Source: Chlorobiota bacterium (GTDB taxonomy: Bacteria > Bacteroidota > Ignavibacteria > OLB7). From it: DNA of 64,000 nt. Positions within the stretch are counted from its first letter, which is position 1. Each line of letters begins with the position of its first letter. A model generated the notes under the pieces. The model worked only from the letters and a program-made list of their open reading frames with translations, had not been told where the DNA came from and made no database searches. Below are positions 4,563 through 47,022 of the stretch, piece by piece. The translations under genes were made by a program, and so were the position numbers. The stretch is from the NCBI GenBank assembly GCA_963711465.1, contig CAVQEG010000001.1, forward strand, positions 367,724 through 431,723, written 5' to 3'.

Positions 4563-7148
4563 TCAGTCGAGGTATTTGTCGGTCACGTCGATGCCACCAC
4601 GGGCGGTGAAGAATCGGAAGTCGTGGAATGCCAGGGTGTTGTCGGGCACCACCTTGATCCGCACGAAGTACTTGAGCATCAGCCGCGTCAGACGGCTCAT
4701 GTCGCCGCCGTCGGTCAGGTACTCGATGATCGTCGGGTGAGCGCTCAGCGTCAGACGGAATTCACGCGCCTCTTCCTTGAACCGCTGCAGCCACCGCTCG
4801 ATGCGGCGTGTGACCGTGCTGCGCGACTGCACTAGTCCCGAGCCCTCGCAGGTGGGGCACTGCTCGGAGAGCGTATGGAGAATCTGCTGGCGGATTCGCT
4901 GGCGGGTCATCTGCACCAGTCCGAACTGGGTCATTGGCAGCACGACGGACTTGGCACGGTCGCGACGCATCTCGCGTTTGATCTCGTCGTGGACCTTCTT
5001 GCGATTGCGCTCGTCGTAGAGGTCGATGAAGTCGACCACGATCAGTCCGCCGATGTCGCGCAGCCGAAGCTGGCGCGCGATCTCACGGGCCGACTCCATG
5101 TTCGTCCGCAGCGAATTGATTTCCTGCTCCTTGCTGTCGGCGTAGCGCCCCGAGTTGACGTCGATCACCATCATCGCCTCGGTCTGCTCGAGGATGATGT
5201 AGCCGCCGGAGGGCAGCCAGACGCGCGGCTCGTAAATGCGCTCGATCTCCTTTTCGATGCCGGTCTCGTCGAAGATCGGCTTGTCGCCCGAGTAGAGTTC
5301 GACCTTGTCGGCAAGCTGAGGCGCCGCCCATTCCACGTACTCGTGGATGTCCTTATAGAGTCGGTGGTTGTCGATCACCACACGGTTGATGTCCGGGGTG
5401 AACATGTCGCGCATCACGGTATTGGCGACCGACTGGTCACGATACAGCAACGTCGGCTTCTCCGCCTCCTTGAGCTTCACCTCGATCGACCGCCACTGGT
5501 TGATCAGGTTGACGAGATCCTGACGGATCACGTCGCTGTCCTTGTTCTCGGCGTTGGTTCGGATGATGCAGCCGTGGCCTTCGGGCAGCAGACTCTGAGC
5601 GATGCGGCGCAGGCGGCGGCGCTCCTTCATGTGCTGCACCTTGCGGGAGACGCCGATCGACGGATCCAGCGGCAGCAGTACGAGGAAGCGGCCGGGGAGC
5701 GAGACCTTCGTCGAGACGCGCACGCCCTTGGAGGAGTAGGATTCGCGGGTGACCTGGACAATCACGTCCTGTCCGCGCTCCAGCGCGATGGTCACTTCGC
5801 CGCTGCGTTTGGTCTGGAACGTCGGGAGTTTCGCGTCCATGGTGTCGCCGCCCTTCGGAGGCGACTCGCCGTCTCCGGAGCGGCCGGAACCGCCACGGTT
5901 TCGCCCCCGACCTCCGCGGCGCGAACTGCGCTTGCGCGCAGCGCCGGTTGGCTTCGCATCGCCGTCGGAAGGCGCCTTCGGCTCTCCGCCGGCGTTCGAC
6001 TTCGATTCATCTGACGCCCTGGATTCACGTGCGGATTCCCGCTCGCCGGAATCGGACGTCGACGTCCGGTTACTCTGACCCTCTTCGTTGGCACCGGAGC
6101 CGGCTCCGGTGGGTCGCGATCCCTTGCGTGCGCCACGGCGTCCGCCGCGGCCGCGTCGAGGACGCTCTTCCGATTCGGTCTGCGGAGCGGCATCCGGCTC
6201 GGAGGCGGCATCCGGCTCGGTCGCCCGCTCCTGCGGCAATGAACGCGCGTTGCGCGGCTGGTTGCGAGGTGATGGTTTCGAGCCACCCTTCGTGCTTCGA
6301 TCCTTCGACGGGCGCTCGTGTGCCGAGCGGTCGTTCGTGGTTCGATCGTTCGACGAGCGGTCCTCGCTCGCCTCAGCCGCGGACTCGGTGTGCGCGGCGT
6401 CGGCTTCCCCTGCGGAATCCGCCTCTCCGCCGCGACCGCGACGGCCACGTCCTCTGCGGCCACGACGCCGCCGACGCTTTCGCTCCGCCTCTTCGGCACT
6501 ATCGCCACCGGAGGCATCGGACGTCGGATGGTCGGTCTCGGTCGGCTGTTCAGTGGCTTCGTCGTCGTGGGGCTGCGACGCGGGTACGTCCCGATGCTGA
6601 TCCTCAGCGTTCTTGCGACCACCTCGGGAACCTCTCTTGCCGCGTCGCCGGCTCTTCTGGCGCGACTCCGACTCGTGATCCTCGGGAGCCGCCACGCCTT
6701 GGCTCGACGATTCGGTTTCCTCGGACTGCGATGGTTCGTCCCTGGGTGTCGGCGACGATGAACGGGAGGGCTTCCTTTTCGCGGCGGACCTTCCGGAGGA
6801 TCCGGATCGCGTAGCGGGAGATCGATCGGCGCCGTTGCCGGCGGGGAGTTCCGCGGGAAGCGGCGTTTCCTCGGCATCATCGGAATCGATCTCCTCGAGG
6901 AACTCCTTGAATTCGTCGAGCTTCGTTCCGACGTCGCTGAAGTGAAGGAAGGCGTGCTGGCTTTCGCCGATGTCGATGAAGGCGGCGTTCATACCCTGGA
7001 CGACCCGCTGCACTTTGCCCAGGTAGATTGAACCGATACGGGACTGCTTGTCCTGGACTTCGAGGAATATCTCGGCCAGGCGCCCGTCCTCGGTCAGCGC
7101 GACGCGCATTTCATTCGACGTCGCGTTGATGATGATTTCTTTCTTCAT
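4563..7148 (-). CDS. Rne/Rng-family ribonuclease (RNase E/G) with a roughly 350-aa low-complexity insertion inside the S1 domain
   Basis: The S1 domain starts at IGSIYLGKVQRVVQGMNAAFIDIGESQHAFLHFSDV and resumes at GQDVIVQVTRESYSSKGVRVSTKVSLPGRFLVLLP. The catalytic core is present (IIRTNAEN, GGYIILEQTEAMMVIDVNSGR, IGGLIVVDFID), as is the zinc-link CPTCEGSG. Confidence 0.9.
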   Translation of the reverse strand: MKKEIIINATSNEMRVALTEDGRLAEIFLEVQDKQSRIGSIYLGKVQRVVQGMNAAFIDIGESQHAFLHFSDVGTKLDEFKEFLEEIDSDDAEETPLPAELPAGNGADRSPATRSGSSGRSAAKRKPSRSSSPTPRDEPSQSEETESSSQGVAAPEDHESESRQKSRRRGKRGSRGGRKNAEDQHRDVPASQPHDDEATEQPTETDHPTSDASGGDSAEEAERKRRRRRGRRGRGRRGRGGEADSAGEADAAHTESAAEASEDRSSNDRTTNDRSAHERPSKDRSTKGGSKPSPRNQPRNARSLPQERATEPDAASEPDAAPQTESEERPRRGRGGRRGARKGSRPTGAGSGANEEGQSNRTSTSDSGERESARESRASDESKSNAGGEPKAPSDGDAKPTGAARKRSSRRGGRGRNRGGSGRSGDGESPPKGGDTMDAKLPTFQTKRSGEVTIALERGQDVIVQVTRESYSSKGVRVSTKVSLPGRFLVLLPLDPSIGVSRKVQHMKERRRLRRIAQSLLPEGHGCIIRTNAENKDSDVIRQDLVNLINQWRSIEVKLKEAEKPTLLYRDQSVANTVMRDMFTPDINRVVIDNHRLYKDIHEYVEWAAPQLADKVELYSGDKPIFDETGIEKEIERIYEPRVWLPSGGYIILEQTEAMMVIDVNSGRYADSKEQEINSLRTNMESAREIARQLRLRDIGGLIVVDFIDLYDERNRKKVHDEIKREMRRDRAKSVVLPMTQFGLVQMTRQRIRQQILHTLSEQCPTCEGSGLVQSRSTVTRRIERWLQRFKEEAREFRLTLSAHPTIIEYLTDGGDMSRLTRLMLKYFVRIKVVPDNTLAFHDFRFFTARGGIDVTDKYLD

Positions 7149-40515: not shown

Positions 40516-41439
40516 TCATGCGCCGTCACGTCCACCACGCATGAGCGGGTAACGATCGAGCACCTCGGCAAGCCGCTCGCCGCCTTTGATTCCGAAGTCG
40601 AGCGTGCGGATGGGGAACGGGATGGTGATTCCATTCCGATCGAACGCAGATTTGATCCGCATGATTGCCTCGCTGCGGGCACCCAGGAAATCAGTCTGCC
40701 GGGCAAATTCAATCCAGAACCGTACCTGGAAATTGATGGATGAATTTCCGAACTCCGTGAAATACAAATCTATCGGATGGTCCGTCAGCACTCCTTTGAC
40801 TGACCGCACTGCCTCGAGCGTCACGCGTCGGACGGACGCGAGATCATCACCATAGGAAATGCCCACCTCGAGATCGATCCTTCGGTGGCCGTGCCGGGAG
40901 TAATTGAGTAGCGTATTCTGGAAGATCTGCTTGTTCGGAATGACGATTTCCTGGCCCTGCAGCGATCGTAATTCACTCGTTCTCAGGTGAATCGACTCGA
41001 CGATGCCGAGCTGCTCGTTCGTTTCAACCAGATCGCCAATTCGAAGCGGGCGCCGCAGCGCCATGATGATTCCGGCGATGAAATTCTCGGCGATGTCCTG
41101 GAAGGCGAATCCCAGTGCCAGACCAACGATACCGGCCCCCGCAAGCAGCGTCGTTACCGTTTTGTCCAGATTCAGAATCCCCAGCGCAACGAACGTTCCA
41201 AGAAGGATGATTGAGGTGTAGATCAGAGATACGAACAGGCGCTCCAGCGTCGAGTTGGTCAGGAACCGTCCCACGAGTCGCTGCGCGAGATTTCGTACCA
41301 GCTTCGCAAGCAGCCAGAAGGCGATCATCACGACGACCGCCATGATCACGTTCGGCAGGTTGATGAAGAACACCTGGTACCACTCGACAAGGCGATGCGT
41401 GATCAGGTTCCACGCGTTCGTCAGTTGATTGTCATTCAT
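40516..41439 (-). CDS. Small-conductance mechanosensitive channel (MscS family)
   Basis: Three N-terminal TM helices are followed by the MscS signature region GIVGLALGFAFQDIAENFIAGIIMALRRPLRIGDLVE...GIVESIHLRTSELRSLQGQEIVIPNKQI. Confidence 0.85.
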   Translation of the reverse strand: MNDNQLTNAWNLITHRLVEWYQVFFINLPNVIMAVVVMIAFWLLAKLVRNLAQRLVGRFLTNSTLERLFVSLIYTSIILLGTFVALGILNLDKTVTTLLAGAGIVGLALGFAFQDIAENFIAGIIMALRRPLRIGDLVETNEQLGIVESIHLRTSELRSLQGQEIVIPNKQIFQNTLLNYSRHGHRRIDLEVGISYGDDLASVRRVTLEAVRSVKGVLTDHPIDLYFTEFGNSSINFQVRFWIEFARQTDFLGARSEAIMRIKSAFDRNGITIPFPIRTLDFGIKGGERLAEVLDRYPLMRGGRDGA

Positions 41440-41584: not shown

Positions 41585-43165
41585 ATGACGAACAATTCGC
41601 AAATCGCACGGAGAGGAATGATGAAAAATATTGCACGCACCCGGAATTCGCCGACACTCGTGAGAAATCTTCGTAACGCCGCTGTGACGGCAATCATGCT
41701 CATCGTCACCGCAGCCGCAGCCGGCGCGCGACCTGCAATGCCCATCACCGATCAGTCGGTACGGCAGTGGGTCGTCGATCAGCTTTCGAGCGATCAGGCA
41801 GTCCGCCACGATGCAATATCCGTCGAGGTCAACGATGGTACCGTCATCCTTACCGGATCGGTTGCCTCACCGTTCAATGAACGCCGCGCCGCCAGCATTG
41901 CGCGCACCGTTCGCGGTGTGACGTCGGTCGATGATCGGCTCGTCGTCGATGCCAATGTTCAATTGGGAAATGAGGTGCTGCGCAGCAGCGTCGAGTCCGC
42001 GCTCGCGGATGTACCGCTGTCGTCGAGCGAACGAATCGACGTCAGCGTGACCGACGGCAACGTACGACTCAGCGGGCAGGTACGTGACTGGCAGCACCGG
42101 CAGCTTGCCGATCAGGCGGTCGGGCGACTCATCGGCGTGCGTTCCGTAGACGATCAACTGACGCTCGCGCGGCAGACAGCGGCCAACGACGACGCCGTCG
42201 AGTCCGCGCTCCGGAACCGACTGGCGTGGGACGGATTGATTGATGCCTCCGCAACCTCGTTCGACGTGAATAATGCGACGGTGACGCTTCGAGGAACCGT
42301 CGGAAGTGCCGCCGAGCGGATGCGGGCGATCGATGATGCCCATGACGTTGGTGCCGTCCGTGTCGATGCCGCCGGGCTCCGTGTGGCCGGCTGGGACCGG
42401 GCTGCAGCGTTTCGAGATGACAAATTCGACGTCAGAGAGGACGGTGAAATCCAGGCAGCGGTCGAGCGTGCACTGTGCAGCGACGCGTGGGCGGGCGGTC
42501 AGGATATCCACGTCGCCGTCGCCAATGGTGAGGTGACGCTCACTGGTACCACCGCGATGTTGAAGGCCGCACGGATGGCCCGGCAGGTCGCGCGCACCGT
42601 CACGAACGTGGCCGGCGTCGAGTCCCGAGTCAGTGTGCAGGTGAATTCGCATGTGTCGGACGAGACGCTGAGCGCACGTGCGATCGCTGCGATCCGACGC
42701 GATGCCGCTCTCGAGGGAACAGGGGTTTCCGTTGTCGTGTCCGGGAACGAGGCGCGACTCATCGGGTCGGTGGCATCGCAGTTCCAGAAATCCGTTGCCG
42801 ATGACGATGTCTCCCGCGTGAAGGGAATCGTCGCCGTCGACAACCGGATCGGGGTGGAGCACAGCAGTGATCCGCTCGTGTACAATCCGTGGGTCGACAC
42901 GTTCATGCCGTACGATTACACCTGGTGGACCGACTATCGGCCGGCCTCGCATTCGGGAGTCAGCGACGATGCATTGAAGACCCGGATAGTCGACGGATTC
43001 GCGAACAGCCCGTTCGTCGAAGACAACGCGGTCACAGTGACCGTGCGAGATGGTGCGGCCTTCCTCAATGGTCGCGTGCAGTCATGGACCGAGCGGTGGG
43101 TGGCTGAACAGGATGCCTTCAATGCGGGCGCACGCCTGGTATACAACAACGTCAAGGTGAAGTAG
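41585..43165 (+). CDS. Secreted protein with six tandem BON domains (OsmY-like)
   Basis: There are six repeats of roughly 65-70 aa. Each has the form D..L...V..AL......(I/V).V.V.(D/N)G.V.L.G.V.........A....R...GV..V.(D/N).L.V. An example is ISVEVNDGTVILTGSVASPFNERRAASIARTVRGVTSVDDRLVV. The start is ambiguous: ATG at 41585, 41618 or 41621. Confidence 0.8.
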   Translation: MTNNSQIARRGMMKNIARTRNSPTLVRNLRNAAVTAIMLIVTAAAAGARPAMPITDQSVRQWVVDQLSSDQAVRHDAISVEVNDGTVILTGSVASPFNERRAASIARTVRGVTSVDDRLVVDANVQLGNEVLRSSVESALADVPLSSSERIDVSVTDGNVRLSGQVRDWQHRQLADQAVGRLIGVRSVDDQLTLARQTAANDDAVESALRNRLAWDGLIDASATSFDVNNATVTLRGTVGSAAERMRAIDDAHDVGAVRVDAAGLRVAGWDRAAAFRDDKFDVREDGEIQAAVERALCSDAWAGGQDIHVAVANGEVTLTGTTAMLKAARMARQVARTVTNVAGVESRVSVQVNSHVSDETLSARAIAAIRRDAALEGTGVSVVVSGNEARLIGSVASQFQKSVADDDVSRVKGIVAVDNRIGVEHSSDPLVYNPWVDTFMPYDYTWWTDYRPASHSGVSDDALKTRIVDGFANSPFVEDNAVTVTVRDGAAFLNGRVQSWTERWVAEQDAFNAGARLVYNNVKVK

Positions 43166-43430
43166 GGGCCACCGGCGCTGCTCCAGAGCGCTCGACTGCG
43201 GATTGCCACAAACCGAAACCGGCCTCACTTCAACAGACCGGTAGTCAACCCTACGAATTACACAGTCTGTAACATGAGGCCGGAATCGGAAGGACCGGGA
43301 ATGTCCGAAGTGGCTGTCCGTACCACTCGGGCGGCCCGGTACCGAACTGACGGAGTATACGCGGGGCAGACGGGGATGTGGGTGAAGCGGCACTACAAGG
43401 AGTAGCGCGGCGCAATTTGCACAATTCGAC

Positions 43431-43502
43431 GCAGCCGACCGAATTGCACTCGCGCGGTATGGGAATTGCACCATCCATACCGCCGGTGTAGCGGTCGGCT
43501 GC
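43431..43502 (+). promoter_or_regulatory. Nested inverted-repeat element in the 420-nt region upstream of the first RGDY-rich gene
   Basis: The outer 11-bp stem is GCAGCCGACCG (43431-43441) with CGGTCGGCTGC (43492-43502). It encloses an inner 9-bp stem, GCGGTATGG (43454-43462) with CCATACCGC (43475-43483). GAATTGCAC occurs twice (43441, 43463), and a related AATTTGCAC occurs at 43414. The function (operator or RNA structure) is not established. Confidence 0.45.
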
Positions 43503-43585
43503 GCCTCCGTTGGGGGCACTTCCACGACGGTCAGCGAGCCTCCGCAGCAGCACCCCCACAGAACAACACTCGAAACTGACGAACC

Positions 43586-44296
43586 ATGAAATACACTCCA
43601 GAAAATGATCGCGCCCGGTCTGGACCCTGGTACGACAGCCGCCACCGGGGACGCGGTGACGACATCGAACAACGCGAAATGCGATATCACCGGACGCAAC
43701 AGGGACCGGGCTTTGGTGAACGGCTGCAACGGATCGATCCCCGAAACCCACGCGACGCCGAGGGAATCGATCGCATGAGGCGTGGTTTTGATCGCACCTC
43801 GGATTGCTACGTCGGATCGAGCTACGGCTCCGGAATCGCTTCGGACGATCGCCGCCACGTCCAGATACGTCCGGTCGACTACGGCGATGGCAGGCCGGGA
43901 GATCGGCCCCTCGACGAGCGGAGCTATCGAACGCGTTACGGCAGGGCGGAGTTCGGCGAATACATCGCCGGAGGGTACGGACACGACGCAGGCAATCGGG
44001 GAGGGTCCGGATTCAATCAGGGCCGCACTGGGGGATATGGAAGCGGACTGAGGCGCGTGCGTAATGATCAGACAGCCTCGCGCGGCGGCTACGACCAGCG
44101 CGGTCAGCCCGATGAGGTCGGGTATCGAGGGGAATTCGGTCGCAGTCGCTTCGGTGGCGGCACCTCGACCCTGGGTTCTCAGGGTGGCTACGGACGCGAA
44201 CACACCCGTCATCGCACTGCCCGCCCCGACGAGTTGGGTTCCCCCGAGGATCGACGTGATACTCCAGCCGGGCGCCGACCGGGGCCTCGGAGATAG
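43586..44296 (+). CDS. Hypothetical Arg/Gly/Asp/Tyr-rich low-complexity protein, predicted intrinsically disordered (236 aa)
   Basis: The ATG-initiated ORF reads MKYTPENDRARSGPWYDSRHRGRGDD...GGYGHDAGNRGGSGFNQGRTGGYGSG...GGYGRE. It has almost no aliphatic residues, prefers TAC/GAC/CGC codons, and lies in the same orientation as the BON gene and the next gene. Competing shadow ORFs exist, so the coding call is tentative. Confidence 0.55.
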   Translation: MKYTPENDRARSGPWYDSRHRGRGDDIEQREMRYHRTQQGPGFGERLQRIDPRNPRDAEGIDRMRRGFDRTSDCYVGSSYGSGIASDDRRHVQIRPVDYGDGRPGDRPLDERSYRTRYGRAEFGEYIAGGYGHDAGNRGGSGFNQGRTGGYGSGLRRVRNDQTASRGGYDQRGQPDEVGYRGEFGRSRFGGGTSTLGSQGGYGREHTRHRTARPDELGSPEDRRDTPAGRRPGPRR

Positions 44297-44347
44297 GGCA
44301 CCGACAGCGACATCCAACATCCATTCAAACCAGCGGAGAATTCATTC

Positions 44348-46234
44348 ATGTACAATCGACGCAATGATCGCAGTCGCCATCGGGAGTGGGATGATCGTGG
44401 CGACCCTCGATCCTACGAGCGACGTCCCGAATGGTCGGATGAGGACCGAGGATTTGACCGCACCACCGACTACCGCGCAACCGACGACCGCGCAACCAGA
44501 GACATGCGACCCGACGAATATTCCCTCGGCGGAGATCAGTACCCCGACACCGGGTATCGGTATTACGATGGCAGACAGTACGCTCGCGGCGGATACGACC
44601 TCAACAGCTACCGGCGCCGTCCGTCACGGGCAGAACGGGACCTGCGCTACCAGTACGGCGGGGATTCCGATCACTACGCCGATACCCAGGGTGGCGGGTT
44701 CGGATCTGAAGCCTTCGACGCACAGCGCTATGACCGCTCACGCGGCATCTCAGACGGGGATCGCTATCGCGATCAGCGCGACCCGTACCAGTATGGACGT
44801 CCGGATTCGCAGGGCGATCGTCGCGGATACGCTGCCTCCGATCGGCGGCCACCGCGATCATACGAACCCGATGCGAGGGAATGGGAACGCCACCGACGCC
44901 CCTACGGATACCGGGGGTACGACGAGTCTGAATCCTACGACGGGTGGCGCTCCCCGGATGACCGACGGTTCAGCCGAAGTGGACGATACGATCGCGGCCG
45001 CGGGTACGAGGAGCGCCGGTGGTACGGTGATTACCAGCCCCATGATGCCCAATTCCCTGCCCACGATGGACAGTATGACCGATGGCGGGGAGACGTGCGC
45101 GGCGGAGAACGGTATCTCGGCGACCGCGACGGTGAATACCGATCCAAGGGCAGGCGCGGCTACGACGAACGGACCGGAAGCGACGAGGACCAGTACGGTA
45201 CGCGTGGTGGGTTCGTCAGTCAGCCCGCTCCAGGCGAGTCTGAATTCGCCCAGAATGACTACGGTCTCGGCGGAGGCATCTACGGAGGACACAGCGACCG
45301 CTACGAGGGTCGCCACGTCGGATACGGCGGCGAAATGACTGGACCGGGAGGCTACAGCTATGGGCAGTCCTTCGGTGCCAACCCCTACGGCGGCTACGGT
45401 GACAGCAAGGAAGCTTATCCCCTCAACTCCGAACAGCGTCGCCTCGGCAGACAGAATTACTCCGACACCGAGTACTCCGGAACCAACTATTCGTCTGGCG
45501 ATCAACTGCCGCCCGACGGTTCACGATGGCACCCGAATCAAACCGGCGGTGCAGACCGGTACGACCAGCGATACGGTGAGGACGGCGTGAGCGATTTGCC
45601 CTACGGGTCCGACAGCAGCGGGGGCCAACCGTACGACTACCGTGGTGTAGACCGCGTTGACTATGAGCGCCCGGAATCAGACTCGCGTCGCTCGGCCCTT
45701 CCCGGTCCCGGATACGACCCGAACTATGGTCTCGATGAACAGCCGATCGCTCCCGACACGGAAGCACGCATGAATCTCGGTAGCGACGCGATGGCTGGAC
45801 TCGGCCGTGGCATCGGTTCGGACGTCGCCAGTTCGGGTCCGCATGCACTGGCAAAGGGGTCATCAGCCGTTGGCACCGGATCGGTCGTGGCATCGGGTGG
45901 GAGGACGGCGACTGGAACGGATTCCGGCGCGGCGCCCTCGGTGAGTCCGACCGCCAGGCGCACGCGCACCTCATCCGGATCCGCGTCGGCGGGTCAGACG
46001 GCATCCGGCATGACCTCGAAAGGCGCTGCGTCCAATTCCGAGCGCTCGTCTTCGACCGCAAAGAGAAGCATATCGACGTCGAAGTCGGGGTCGAAGGCGA
46101 AGTCGACCGCCAAATCGAAGTCCGGTTCGGACAACAGCGCGGCGACCGGATCGACGCGATCGAAATCGAGCCGACGCGGAAGTTCAAAACGCGGCGCATC
46201 GCAAGACACGTCGGATGCATCGGAATCCGTCTGA
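44348..46234 (+). CDS. Hypothetical Arg/Asp/Tyr/Gly-rich low-complexity protein with a Ser/Thr/Lys-rich basic tail, predicted intrinsically disordered (628 aa)
   Basis: GGAG lies 9 nt upstream of the ATG. About 430 aa are built from motifs such as DRYRDQRDPYQYGRPDSQGDRRGY, YGYRGYDESESYDGW and GRYDRGRGYEERRWYGDY. About 190 aa of S/T/A/G/K-rich sequence follow (KRSISTSKSGSKAKSTAKSKSGS). TAC is consistently preferred over TAT in this frame. Confidence 0.6.
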   Translation: MYNRRNDRSRHREWDDRGDPRSYERRPEWSDEDRGFDRTTDYRATDDRATRDMRPDEYSLGGDQYPDTGYRYYDGRQYARGGYDLNSYRRRPSRAERDLRYQYGGDSDHYADTQGGGFGSEAFDAQRYDRSRGISDGDRYRDQRDPYQYGRPDSQGDRRGYAASDRRPPRSYEPDAREWERHRRPYGYRGYDESESYDGWRSPDDRRFSRSGRYDRGRGYEERRWYGDYQPHDAQFPAHDGQYDRWRGDVRGGERYLGDRDGEYRSKGRRGYDERTGSDEDQYGTRGGFVSQPAPGESEFAQNDYGLGGGIYGGHSDRYEGRHVGYGGEMTGPGGYSYGQSFGANPYGGYGDSKEAYPLNSEQRRLGRQNYSDTEYSGTNYSSGDQLPPDGSRWHPNQTGGADRYDQRYGEDGVSDLPYGSDSSGGQPYDYRGVDRVDYERPESDSRRSALPGPGYDPNYGLDEQPIAPDTEARMNLGSDAMAGLGRGIGSDVASSGPHALAKGSSAVGTGSVVASGGRTATGTDSGAAPSVSPTARRTRTSSGSASAGQTASGMTSKGAASNSERSSSTAKRSISTSKSGSKAKSTAKSKSGSDNSAATGSTRSKSSRRGSSKRGASQDTSDASESV

Positions 46235-46503
46235 GCCCGCACCGTTTGACCGAGCGAAGGCATCTGTGACAACGGCAGAGGCGTCTGCAGTGTTGACCGA
46301 TCGCTGCGTCGACATCGCGTGCGACCCGGACAGGATGGCAGCACAGGGTGCTACGGAAACGCCGAAATCTGCCCGAATTCGACTGGCATACTCGTTGAAT
46401 ACGCCCGTCGCAGACGATCACATTCCTGCTCGTTCGCTGGCCTGGGCGGTCGGGCAAGGGAATGCCTCAACATTCAAACGGCAATCAACGTGAGGTACAG
46501 GTC

Positions 46504-47022
46504 ATGGCAATCGTTCGATTCAATCCGCTCAACGAAGTCCTGGGACTGCAGCGGGAGATGAACAGGCTGTTCGACACGTTCGCGCCCGCACGGCGGGACG
46601 ATGAGGGCTACGAATCGGCCGTCTGGCGACCAGTCGTCGACGTGCATGAGGACGAGAACGGCTATTCGATCGACATCGAGCTGCCCGGCATGAAGCGGGA
46701 CGACGTTACCATCAACTATCAGGATGGAACGCTTGCCGTCTCGGGTGAGCGGCGGTACGAACATGAGGTGGGCGCTCCGGCGTCCGACGGCGACGGCGCT
46801 CGGGCGAAGGAGAACGGGAACGGAGACGACAGCGGCACCGTCAGAAAGCGACCAGTGACTGTGCATCGGGTCGAGCGTTCGTACGGGAAATTCTATCGGA
46901 GCTTCACGTTCCCTTCCGCGATCGATGAGAAGGGGATCAAGGCAACCTTCCACGACGGTGTATTGAACGTCAGGGTGCCGAAGGCCGAGGAGGTCAAGCC
47001 CCGGAAGATCTCGATCGACTGA
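46504..47022 (+). CDS. Hsp20/alpha-crystallin family small heat-shock protein
   Basis: The start is trimmed to MAIVRFNPLNEVLGLQREMNRLFD. The alpha-crystallin domain is W.P.VDVHEDENGYSIDIELPGMKRDDVTINYQDGTLAVSGER...ERSYGKFYRSFTFPSAIDEKGIKATFHDGVLNVRVPK. GAGG lies 9 nt upstream. Confidence 0.9.
   Translation: MAIVRFNPLNEVLGLQREMNRLFDTFAPARRDDEGYESAVWRPVVDVHEDENGYSIDIELPGMKRDDVTINYQDGTLAVSGERRYEHEVGAPASDGDGARAKENGNGDDSGTVRKRPVTVHRVERSYGKFYRSFTFPSAIDEKGIKATFHDGVLNVRVPKAEEVKPRKISID

Follow-up and report, generated by a model that had tools for sequence, protein, structure and literature searches.

Two adjacent Arg/Gly/Asp/Tyr-rich open reading frames in a Chlorobiota genome as candidate hydrophilin-type disordered stress proteins

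A 64,000-nt stretch of DNA from a Chlorobiota bacterium (GCA_963711465.1, contig CAVQEG010000001.1, positions 367,724–431,723 of the forward strand; here called the window, with all positions counted from its first nucleotide) contains two adjacent open reading frames (ORFs), A and B, whose products are rich in Arg, Gly, Asp and Tyr and poor in hydrophobic residues. B is very probably a real gene, and aromatic residues are spaced along its first 460 residues far more evenly than in shuffled sequences. A is probably a gene as well, though with less certainty. Both ORFs lie among genes of osmotic and heat stress, and we tentatively read B, and probably A, as lineage-specific cytoplasmic disordered proteins of the hydrophilin type that would self-associate in osmotic, heat or water stress, which we regard as a serious possibility. 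The two ORFs had been picked out earlier by a reading of the DNA made without database searches (the sequence-only reading); the coordinates, ATG starts, compositions and basic tail that it had described all match our data.

Composition and aromatic patterning

Arg, Gly, Asp and Tyr make up 19.1, 18.6, 9.3 and 5.9% of A and 15.9, 15.7, 13.4 and 11.6% of residues 1–440 of B, and the sum of Leu, Ile, Val, Phe and Met amounts to 10.5 and 6.4%, respectively. For reference, in the 23 other genes of the window these two groups of residues account for 26.6% (Arg, Gly, Asp and Tyr) and 27.1% (Leu, Ile, Val, Phe and Met). The rest of B (residues 441–628, 188 aa) is a basic tail with a net charge of +10 and an isoelectric point (pI) of 10.4, composed of 23.9% Ser, 13.8% Ala, 13.3% Gly, 8.5% Thr and 5.3% Lys; most of its Lys is found within the last ~70 residues, and the SK/KS dipeptide is enriched (11 times, 5.0 expected). 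Since the proteome of the window generally favours Arg over Lys (8.3 versus 1.6%) and Asp over Glu (7.4 versus 4.9%), the preponderance of these two residues, Arg and Asp, in A and B tracks the genomic bias. Tandem repeats in the DNA are negligible and were rejected as a cause of the composition. Neither the rest of the window nor ~1.2 Mb of sequence from 83 fetched loci contains a further ORF of this composition among those of 100 aa or more. Among short motifs, GGY occurs four times in A (0.5 expected). The label of RGG-type proteins given by the sequence-only reading does not hold: RGG is present twice in A and three times in residues 1–440 of B (1.6–1.7 expected) and RG 7 and 13 times (8.4 and 10.9 expected), as the composition predicts.

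As a measure of evenness we used the squared coefficient of variation (CV2) of the gaps between aromatic residues and compared it with 2000 shuffles of the same sequence. Residues 1–460 of B contain 68 aromatics (14.8%, mostly Tyr), whose gaps average 6.8 residues and reach at most 17; their CV2 is 0.28 (0.83 ± 0.20 in the shuffles), and not a single shuffle was equally even. The same is true for residues 1–280 alone (15.4% aromatic, 0/2000 shuffles), and residues 281–460 (13.9% aromatic) are evenly spaced with p=0.001. Only 2 adjacent aromatic pairs are present in residues 1–440, compared to 9.9 expected. In A, where 8.9% of the residues are aromatic, even spacing is weaker (p=0.03–0.04). Two controls from the same locus, the BON-domain protein encoded upstream of A and a 412-aa ORF antisense to A, show no comparable evenness. 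Residues 1–460 of B also contain ~70 Arg. The charged fraction is 0.36 in residues 1–440 of B (Asp and Glu 19.5%, net charge −14) and 0.34 in A (net charge +11); charges in this part of B are better mixed than random (p~0.01), with DR occurring 16 times (9.3 expected). AlphaFold2 run on the single sequence of B yields a mean predicted local distance difference test score (pLDDT) of 37.7 and no secondary structure, which fits disorder, single-sequence models being weak evidence. No signal peptide or anchor was found in the sequences of A and B. To judge from the sequence, these non-random features at the protein level are the best available sign that B may be translated and selected.

Coding evidence for B

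A and B share a common reading frame, a point absent from the sequence-only reading, and are separated by one TAG and 17 codons. This frame contains 2 stops in 883 codons, compared to 7 to 46 in the remaining five frames, and its 645-codon open run is longer than that found in each of 500 dinucleotide shuffles (mean 232, maximum 494). A synonymous-codon score, which disregards the amino-acid composition and was compared across the six frames, places the B frame on top (0.181; BON gene 0.20, Hsp20 gene 0.21). The codon fractions of B for TAC (0.75), GAC (0.64) and CGC (0.44) are close to those of the genome (0.75, 0.63 and 0.37); the preference for these codons noted by the sequence-only reading thus stands for B, but only partly for A (GAC 0.45). 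Its argument that Tyr codons identify the frame does not discriminate, since the synonymous-codon scores tie for A. We further used a frame model (3-periodic second-order Markov, trained on 23 genes of the window), which assigned 79 of 80 leave-one-out chunks of 450 nt correctly. The posterior for the B frame is ~1.0 in nearly all 300-nt segments between 44336 and 45985, i.e. over approximately the first 545 codons. Both the codon score and the frame model therefore favour the B frame over the 424-aa plus-strand alternative that the sequence-only reading had named. The GGAG motif that it had placed 9 nt before the B start is indeed present (Table 1).

Both the deposited 3.2-Mb genome and a Logan contig carry a gene call for B. 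Across A and B the Logan contig, which was assembled independently, does not differ from the window, so that a sequencing or assembly artefact or a polishing frameshift is unlikely. We considered, and rejected, that the TAG separating A from B is reassigned or read through: the BON gene also ends in TAG, at the position where its alignment with BON homologues ends, and TAG is therefore an ordinary stop here. Several overlapping ORFs were rejected as well. The 424-aa plus-strand ORF (44064–45338) is ahead in a single 300-nt segment only, its product is 0.5% aromatic, and it has no Pfam match and is not in the protein collection. On the minus strand, a 344-aa ORF is uncalled and without family match, and a 215-aa ORF is uncalled, with DUF211 as the sole match (E=0.074, below the cut-off). 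A third minus-strand ORF (116 aa, 45994–46344), rich in Asp, Phe and Leu and overlapping the 3′ end of B, is uncalled and has no Pfam match despite a strong signal in the frame model over 45836–46435; the Lys/Ser-rich tail, together with a TCGAAG repeat at 46073–46106, probably produces this signal artefactually.

ORF A and the antisense ORF of 412 aa

The sequence-only reading had claimed two adjacent genes; this is secure for B, but for A the deposited annotation calls the opposite strand and the frame model is tied. It is conceivable that A is no gene and that the real gene at this position, if any, is the 412-aa ORF (43082–44320, minus strand), of which A would be the mirror shadow frame. 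Indeed, the deposited protein set contains the 412-aa product rather than A, and both the frame model (0.51 for A versus 0.49 for the antisense register) and the synonymous-codon score (0.095 versus 0.081) end in ties. Also, the minus frame stays open for 168 more codons across the spacer between the BON gene and A, for which we estimated a chance of ~1% from the base composition. On the other hand, the gene caller used for the Logan contig picks the frame of A, and in sliding segments over A the plus strand reaches 0.74, 0.85 and 0.99 before the tie sets in. In the 420-nt spacer the posterior of the minus frame is 0.02, its product there is rich in Cys, His, Pro and Arg, and the spacer contains a hairpin of −53 kcal/mol within the 412-aa ORF. 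The arrangement is unfavourable too: the antisense ORF overlaps the 3′ end of the BON gene by 84 nt and its ATG lies, divergently, 27 nt from the ATG of B, leaving no room for a B promoter, whereas A followed by B would form an ordinary tandem pair with a Shine-Dalgarno motif before B. That the antisense frame is open follows automatically from a sense protein poor in Leu and Ser, as A contains 5 Leu and 15 Ser and no TCA codon.

A composition like that of B over 236 aa was not found in a shadow frame anywhere in ~1.3 Mb scanned, and A also has the B-like enrichment of GGY and YG, the even aromatic spacing and the motif RGFDRT[ST]D. For the 412-aa product, Pfam gave no match and AlphaFold2 no confident fold (pLDDT 31.8, an uninformative model). 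The motif shared by A and B extends to RGFDRT[ST]D ... A[ST]DDR ... [IM]RPx[DE]Y (BLASTP of A versus B, E=0.021). An alignment of 110 aa at the N-termini has z=2.3, a score that was reached in 29 of 1000 shuffles, which marginally suggests that A and B are paralogs. Taken together, A is the likely choice over the antisense ORF, and a gene on the minus strand appears unlikely.

Homologue searches and related loci

B is an orphan. A word-indexed search of 5.8 billion protein clusters (90% identity) and an exhaustive phmmer search of 1.84 billion representatives (50% identity) both returned only B itself. PDB sequences gave nothing for A or B, and in Pfam and NCBIfam no family matched them at E≤1 save for a chance match of A to GST_C_7 (E=0.3). 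Matching these negative results in Pfam, NCBIfam, PDB and the large protein collections, the sequence-only reading had known of no characterised family with this composition. A tblastn search against plasmids gave nothing, the query probably having been masked by the low-complexity filter, and local tblastn and blastn searches with A, B and the 412-aa and 424-aa ORFs against 86 fetched loci gave nothing either. When the BON neighbour served as the single query protein, a scan of GTDB genomes found nothing. The source genome is outside the GTDB representative set. An alignment-based scan with the same protein yielded 79 loci from many phyla; none of them has an Arg/Gly/Asp/Tyr-rich or Tyr-containing hydrophilin-like ORF nearby. 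The best non-self matches are 36–38% identical for the BON neighbour and 59% for YceD, encoded downstream of B. The organism is thus isolated in the databases, which makes the orphan status of A and B only weakly informative. The closest relatives of YceD (48–59% identity) are found on short contigs.

It would also be possible that B, together with A, is a recent or decaying ORF, perhaps a gene of 883 codons split by the TAG, with little or no translation and no selected function, whose composition arose by drift in a GC-rich genome that prefers Arg strongly over Lys and Asp over Glu. The strict orphan status in both collections, the absence of A and B at the syntenic position in the nearest readable relative (see below), the low codon adaptation, the shared frame with a single stop in between and the atypical coding statistics of the B tail are consistent with this idea. 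However, aromatic spacing in two modules and charge mixing are traits of the protein and not products of drift, the 645-codon open frame lies outside all shuffles, and a model trained on ordinary genes recognizes the B frame despite its odd composition; the lack of homologues means little for an organism without close relatives in the databases. We therefore consider such a non-functional origin improbable.

Three further observations were made on related loci. The multi-BON protein is spread over Planctomycetota, Desulfobacterota, Ignavibacteriales and others, with 32–39% identity to the protein of the window. Hsp20 is encoded within 10 kb of a multi-BON gene in ~7 of the 79 loci, from unrelated phyla (L004/L012, L016, L018, L027, L028, L042 and L060). 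A 17-kb contig of JGI 3300056388, whose YceD is 55% identical, carries a 639-aa gene without Pfam match, located ~2.9 kb 5′ of Hsp20 and oriented like it; this gene is near B in size and could be a compositional analogue.

Comparison with prion-like domains and other known systems

Prion-like low-complexity domains contain 15–20% aromatic residues in uniform distribution, and this uniform patterning is a conserved feature of those that phase-separate (PMC9748015). The primary stickers are Tyr and Phe, with Arg in an auxiliary role; 60–70% of the residues are polar and uncharged, which implies ~10–25% ionizable residues (PMC9748015). The sequence-only reading had proposed a likeness of A and B to eukaryotic Tyr/Arg/Gly low-complexity domains, and in this respect B bears it out, with an aromatic fraction and an evenness of spacing near those of hnRNPA1 and FUS. 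The low-complexity domains of hnRNPA1 and FUS, used as controls, have 14.8 and 14.7% aromatics, mean gaps of 6.2 and 6.7 residues and a CV2 of 0.13. B thus resembles these controls in aromatic fraction, mean spacing and evenness; its 14.8% is equal to theirs and slightly below the published range, whereas A has 8.9%. Tyr-dominated stickers, the availability of Arg, Gly/Ser/Gln spacers in module II (Table 1) and the lack of predicted structure are further common features. However, B does not share the low charge of these domains (charged fraction 0.36), module II alone being closer. It has no sequence homology to them and no RNA recognition motif or zinc finger as a partner, the whole protein being of low complexity. 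Moreover, the host is a bacterium, the genes stand in a stress cluster, and RGG boxes are not enriched.

With Arg at 16–19% plus Tyr, and with the aromatic valence and patterning of prion-like domains, A and B might alternatively be nucleic-acid-binding condensate scaffolds in RNA metabolism that form RNA-dependent droplets irrespective of water stress, comparable to the low-complexity and RGG domains of FUS/hnRNP proteins or to the disordered region of RNase E; Arg, Tyr and the basic tail would then contact the RNA. In line with this, A is basic (pI 10.1), as is the Ser/Lys-rich tail of B (pI 10.4), the ribosome-related genes for YceD and L32 follow just downstream, and the RNase E/G of the same genome tolerates large Arg/Gly-rich inserts. 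However, no RNA-binding domain was found in A and B with Pfam and NCBIfam, RGG and RG do not exceed the compositional expectation, and the net charge of −14 with 19.5% Asp and Glu in residues 1–440 of B disfavours RNA binding. Also, the adjacent genes are stress genes and not RNA-processing genes, and it would be unusual for a housekeeping RNA factor not to be conserved even in the nearest relative. A role as RNA scaffold is therefore rather unlikely.

The same genome offers another kind of low complexity for comparison. At 4563–7148 on the minus strand, an 861-aa protein (pI 9.1, grand average of hydropathy (GRAVY) −1.0) was read from its translation as an RNase E/G-type ribonuclease; it carries a disordered insert of ~370 aa that is rich in Arg, Gly, Ser, Glu and Asp, with boxes like RRRRGRRGRGRRGRGG and no aromatic residue at all. 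The disordered charged region of RNase E has been proposed to drive condensates in bacterial ribonucleoprotein bodies. This genome's RNase E/G shares such an Arg/Gly/Ser/Glu-rich insert, but the insert is aromatic-free and tied to a catalytic domain, whereas A and B are stand-alone and aromatic-rich.

Hydrophilins are operationally defined by a Gly content above 6% and a GRAVY below −1 (PMC4190154). A (Gly 18.6%, GRAVY −1.57) and B (15.0%, −1.52; −1.83 for residues 1–440) both lie within these limits and hence belong to the operational hydrophilin class by composition. Like hydrophilins, B is predicted to be fully disordered, and it is encoded beside osmotic and heat stress genes. Hydrophilins or LEA-like stress proteins are known from E. 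coli and, with Hsp12, from yeast. Two other bacterial hydrophilins, DtpA and DtpB, protect enzymes and make for tolerance of desiccation (PMC13552118). There are also differences: neither A nor B matches the LEA, KGG, CsbD or dehydrin families in Pfam and NCBIfam, B is with 628 aa much larger than yeast Hsp12, which is described as a small intrinsically disordered protein, and A and B are rich in Tyr, Arg and Asp, whereas published sets use Glu more than Asp (PMC4190154).

SWFGD proteins, a group of uncharacterised bacterial proteins, carry flanks of low complexity rich in Arg, Asp, Gly and Tyr. The sequence-only reading had stated that A and B lack the SWFGD motif, which we can corroborate: the eponymous sequence is absent from both, and the family model NF033157 (29 positions) gave no hit for full-length A and B at E≤1 or for their motif segments at E≤10, while a test sequence used as positive control scored 61 bits. 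The motif DRGFDRT[ST]D...DDR of A and B is loosely like the first half of the domain, but the model gives it no score. No literature on the SWFGD family (NF033157) was found.

Locus layout and neighbouring genes

The features of the locus are collected in Table 1. The gene order is MscS (minus strand), six-BON OsmY-like (plus strand), A, B, Hsp20, YceD and L32. The NCBIfam OsmY match of the BON protein is below the cut-off, and an N-terminal hydrophobic segment suggests that this protein is probably periplasmic.

Table 1. Positions of the ORFs, modules, motifs and neighbouring genes in the window
Feature	Position	Strand	Description
ORF A	43586..44296	+	236 aa, Arg/Gly/Asp/Tyr-rich; GRAVY −1.57, Gly 18.6%, pI 10.1; probable gene
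ORF B	44348..46234	+	628 aa, hydrophilic throughout, predicted disordered; GRAVY −1.52, Gly 15%
B module I, aa 1–280	44348..45187	+	Arg/Asp/Tyr-rich, mixed charge, plus Trp, Gly, Glu, Pro; from sliding composition
B module II, aa 281–460	45188..45727	+	Gly/Tyr/Ser/Gln/Asp-rich, Arg-poor, FUS-type-like (e.g. GPGGYSYGQSFGANPYGGYG); from sliding composition
B module III, aa 461–628	45728..46231	+	Ser/Thr/Ala/Gly stretch without aromatics, then Ser/Lys-rich basic tail; from sliding composition
Antisense ORF, 412 aa	43082..44320	-	exact antisense register of A; called in deposited annotation; judged a shadow ORF
MscS-type mechanosensitive channel	40516..41439	-	Pfam MS_channel domains; divergent from BON gene
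Six-BON OsmY-like protein, 514 aa	41621..43165	+	Pfam BON, 6 stretches, E=8e-64; upstream neighbour
Hsp20 small heat-shock protein	46504..47022	+	Pfam HSP20, E=1e-22; downstream neighbour, followed by YceD and L32
GGAG Shine-Dalgarno-like motif	44335..44338	+	9 nt 5′ of B ATG, within the 51-nt A–B spacer
Extended hairpin, 74 nt	43430..43503	+	BON–A spacer, 83 nt 5′ of A ATG, 265 nt past BON stop
Motif RGFDRTSD in A (aa 66–73), then ASDDRRHVQIRPVDY	43781..43804	+	BLASTP of A versus B
Motif RGFDRTTD in B (aa 34–41), then ATDDRATRDMRPDEY	44447..44470	+	BLASTP of A versus B

Like B, the BON and Hsp20 genes have Shine-Dalgarno-like motifs before their starts, which are rare at other genes of the window. 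The hairpin in the BON–A spacer has nested perfect arms of 12 and 9 nt and a minimum free energy of −53.2 kcal/mol (z=−5.8, 0/200 shuffles); it occurs once in the window, contains GAATTGCAC twice and matches nothing in Rfam. Possible roles are those of a terminator of the BON gene, a structure in the 5′ leader of A and B or a protein-binding site. Terminator and Rfam scans of the locus were uninformative.

Two side observations concern the spacers. The 9-mer CATTCAAAC is found at 44322–44330 and 46471–46479 on the plus strand, 17–25 nt 5′ of the starts of B and Hsp20, and both copies are followed by a Shine-Dalgarno-like motif; with an estimated chance of ~0.04 for a shared 9-mer, the pair may be a shared regulatory element or a coincidence. 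In the BON–A spacer, a 43-aa hydrophilic ORF (MRPESEGPGMSEVAVRTTRAARYRTDGVYAGQTGMWVKRHYKE, 43274–43405, plus strand) shares its frame register with BON, A and B; the posterior of its frame is 1.0 over 43136–43435, and it has no Pfam match and is absent from the protein collection.

The envelope-stress neighbours BON and MscS, the Tyr content of 11.6% in residues 1–440 and the Gly-rich segments of GGYG type also bring to mind a structural matrix protein that would be exported by a non-classical route and whose dityrosine cross-links would build up a layer of a cyst, a spore-like form or the envelope. Tyr-rich coat proteins of Bacillus (CotC/CotU) and resilin are cases for comparison, and the Ser/Lys/Arg-rich tail of B recalls phosphorylated coat proteins. 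However, A and B have neither signal peptide nor anchor, no peroxidase, laccase or CotH-type gene was seen among the neighbours examined, and the high and well-mixed charge favours solubility. A matrix function of B is accordingly very improbable.

Proposed mechanism and weighing of the evidence

How could hydrophilin-type proteins of this kind act? In the stress reading proposed at the outset, B would be a sticker-and-spacer polymer in which the ~68 even aromatics and ~70 Arg of residues 1–460 serve as stickers, while the mixed Asp/Glu and the Gly/Ser would keep it soluble and expanded, with the aromatic-free, Ser/Lys-rich basic tail appended. A and B would be expressed together with the MscS, six-BON OsmY-like and Hsp20 stress genes. 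Falling water activity, or rising ionic strength or crowding, would then cause reversible self-association through Tyr-Tyr and Tyr-Arg contacts, and the resulting condensate or gel could shield or vitrify cytoplasmic macromolecules and dissolve upon rehydration. Both the basic tail of B and A, itself a basic protein, may serve to bring in nucleic acids or acidic clients.

Several findings weigh against this reading. There is no homologous locus in any collection searched. L086, the nearest relative whose upstream DNA is readable (YceD 50% and Hsp20 56% identical), has Hsp20-YceD-L32 without A, B and BON, and a minus-strand lipoprotein gene is located upstream in their place. The absence of A and B from this syntenic position suggests that the genes are young or mobile in the lineage; it also fits weak or no function. 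The synonymous-codon scores of B (0.18) and A (0.095) are at and below, respectively, the floor of the other genes of the window (0.20–0.48). In the frame model, the segment 44786–45085 prefers the frame of the 424-aa plus-strand ORF, and segments covering 45836–46435, which include the last ~130 codons of B, prefer a minus frame that stops likewise interrupt. We attribute the latter to the tail being rich in Lys and Ser while Lys makes up 1.6% of the proteome; still, it is a real caveat. With a charged fraction of 0.36 and 19.5% Asp and Glu, residues 1–440 of B are far above known prion-like domains, and self-association could be suppressed by this high charge. A promoter scan of the locus found no promoter-like site. 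Finally, the BON protein is probably periplasmic and A and B have no signal peptide, so that the link between them would be at most regulatory.

Going further, B might be an independently evolved, stand-alone bacterial counterpart of prion-like domains, with all of its 628 aa devoted to the sticker-and-spacer design, forming a reversible condensate or glass in the cytoplasm under osmotic, heat or drying stress, possibly with A, Hsp20 and nucleic acids. We consider this stronger proposal doubtful.

Significance

The drivers of bacterial condensates known so far are for the most part either charge-patterned regions or disordered parts appended to folded proteins. If our stronger proposal were true, the aromatic sticker-and-spacer design would have arisen independently outside eukaryotes, and B would provide a minimal and genetically tractable bacterial stress granule. 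It would also be a compact reagent for studying the influence of a high, mixed charge on phase separation driven by aromatics, and perhaps a stabiliser of dried biologics. The value of the finding is limited insofar as A and B are orphans of one lineage, known from sequence alone. For annotation, the deposited call over A would be an example of a low-complexity hydrophilic gene called in its mirror frame; gene callers differ on such sequences, and hydrophilins of the A/B type may be under-annotated in GC-rich genomes. For the organism itself, the position of A and B among genes of osmotic and heat stress would, if the proposal holds, tie the sticker-and-spacer design to protection against water stress.

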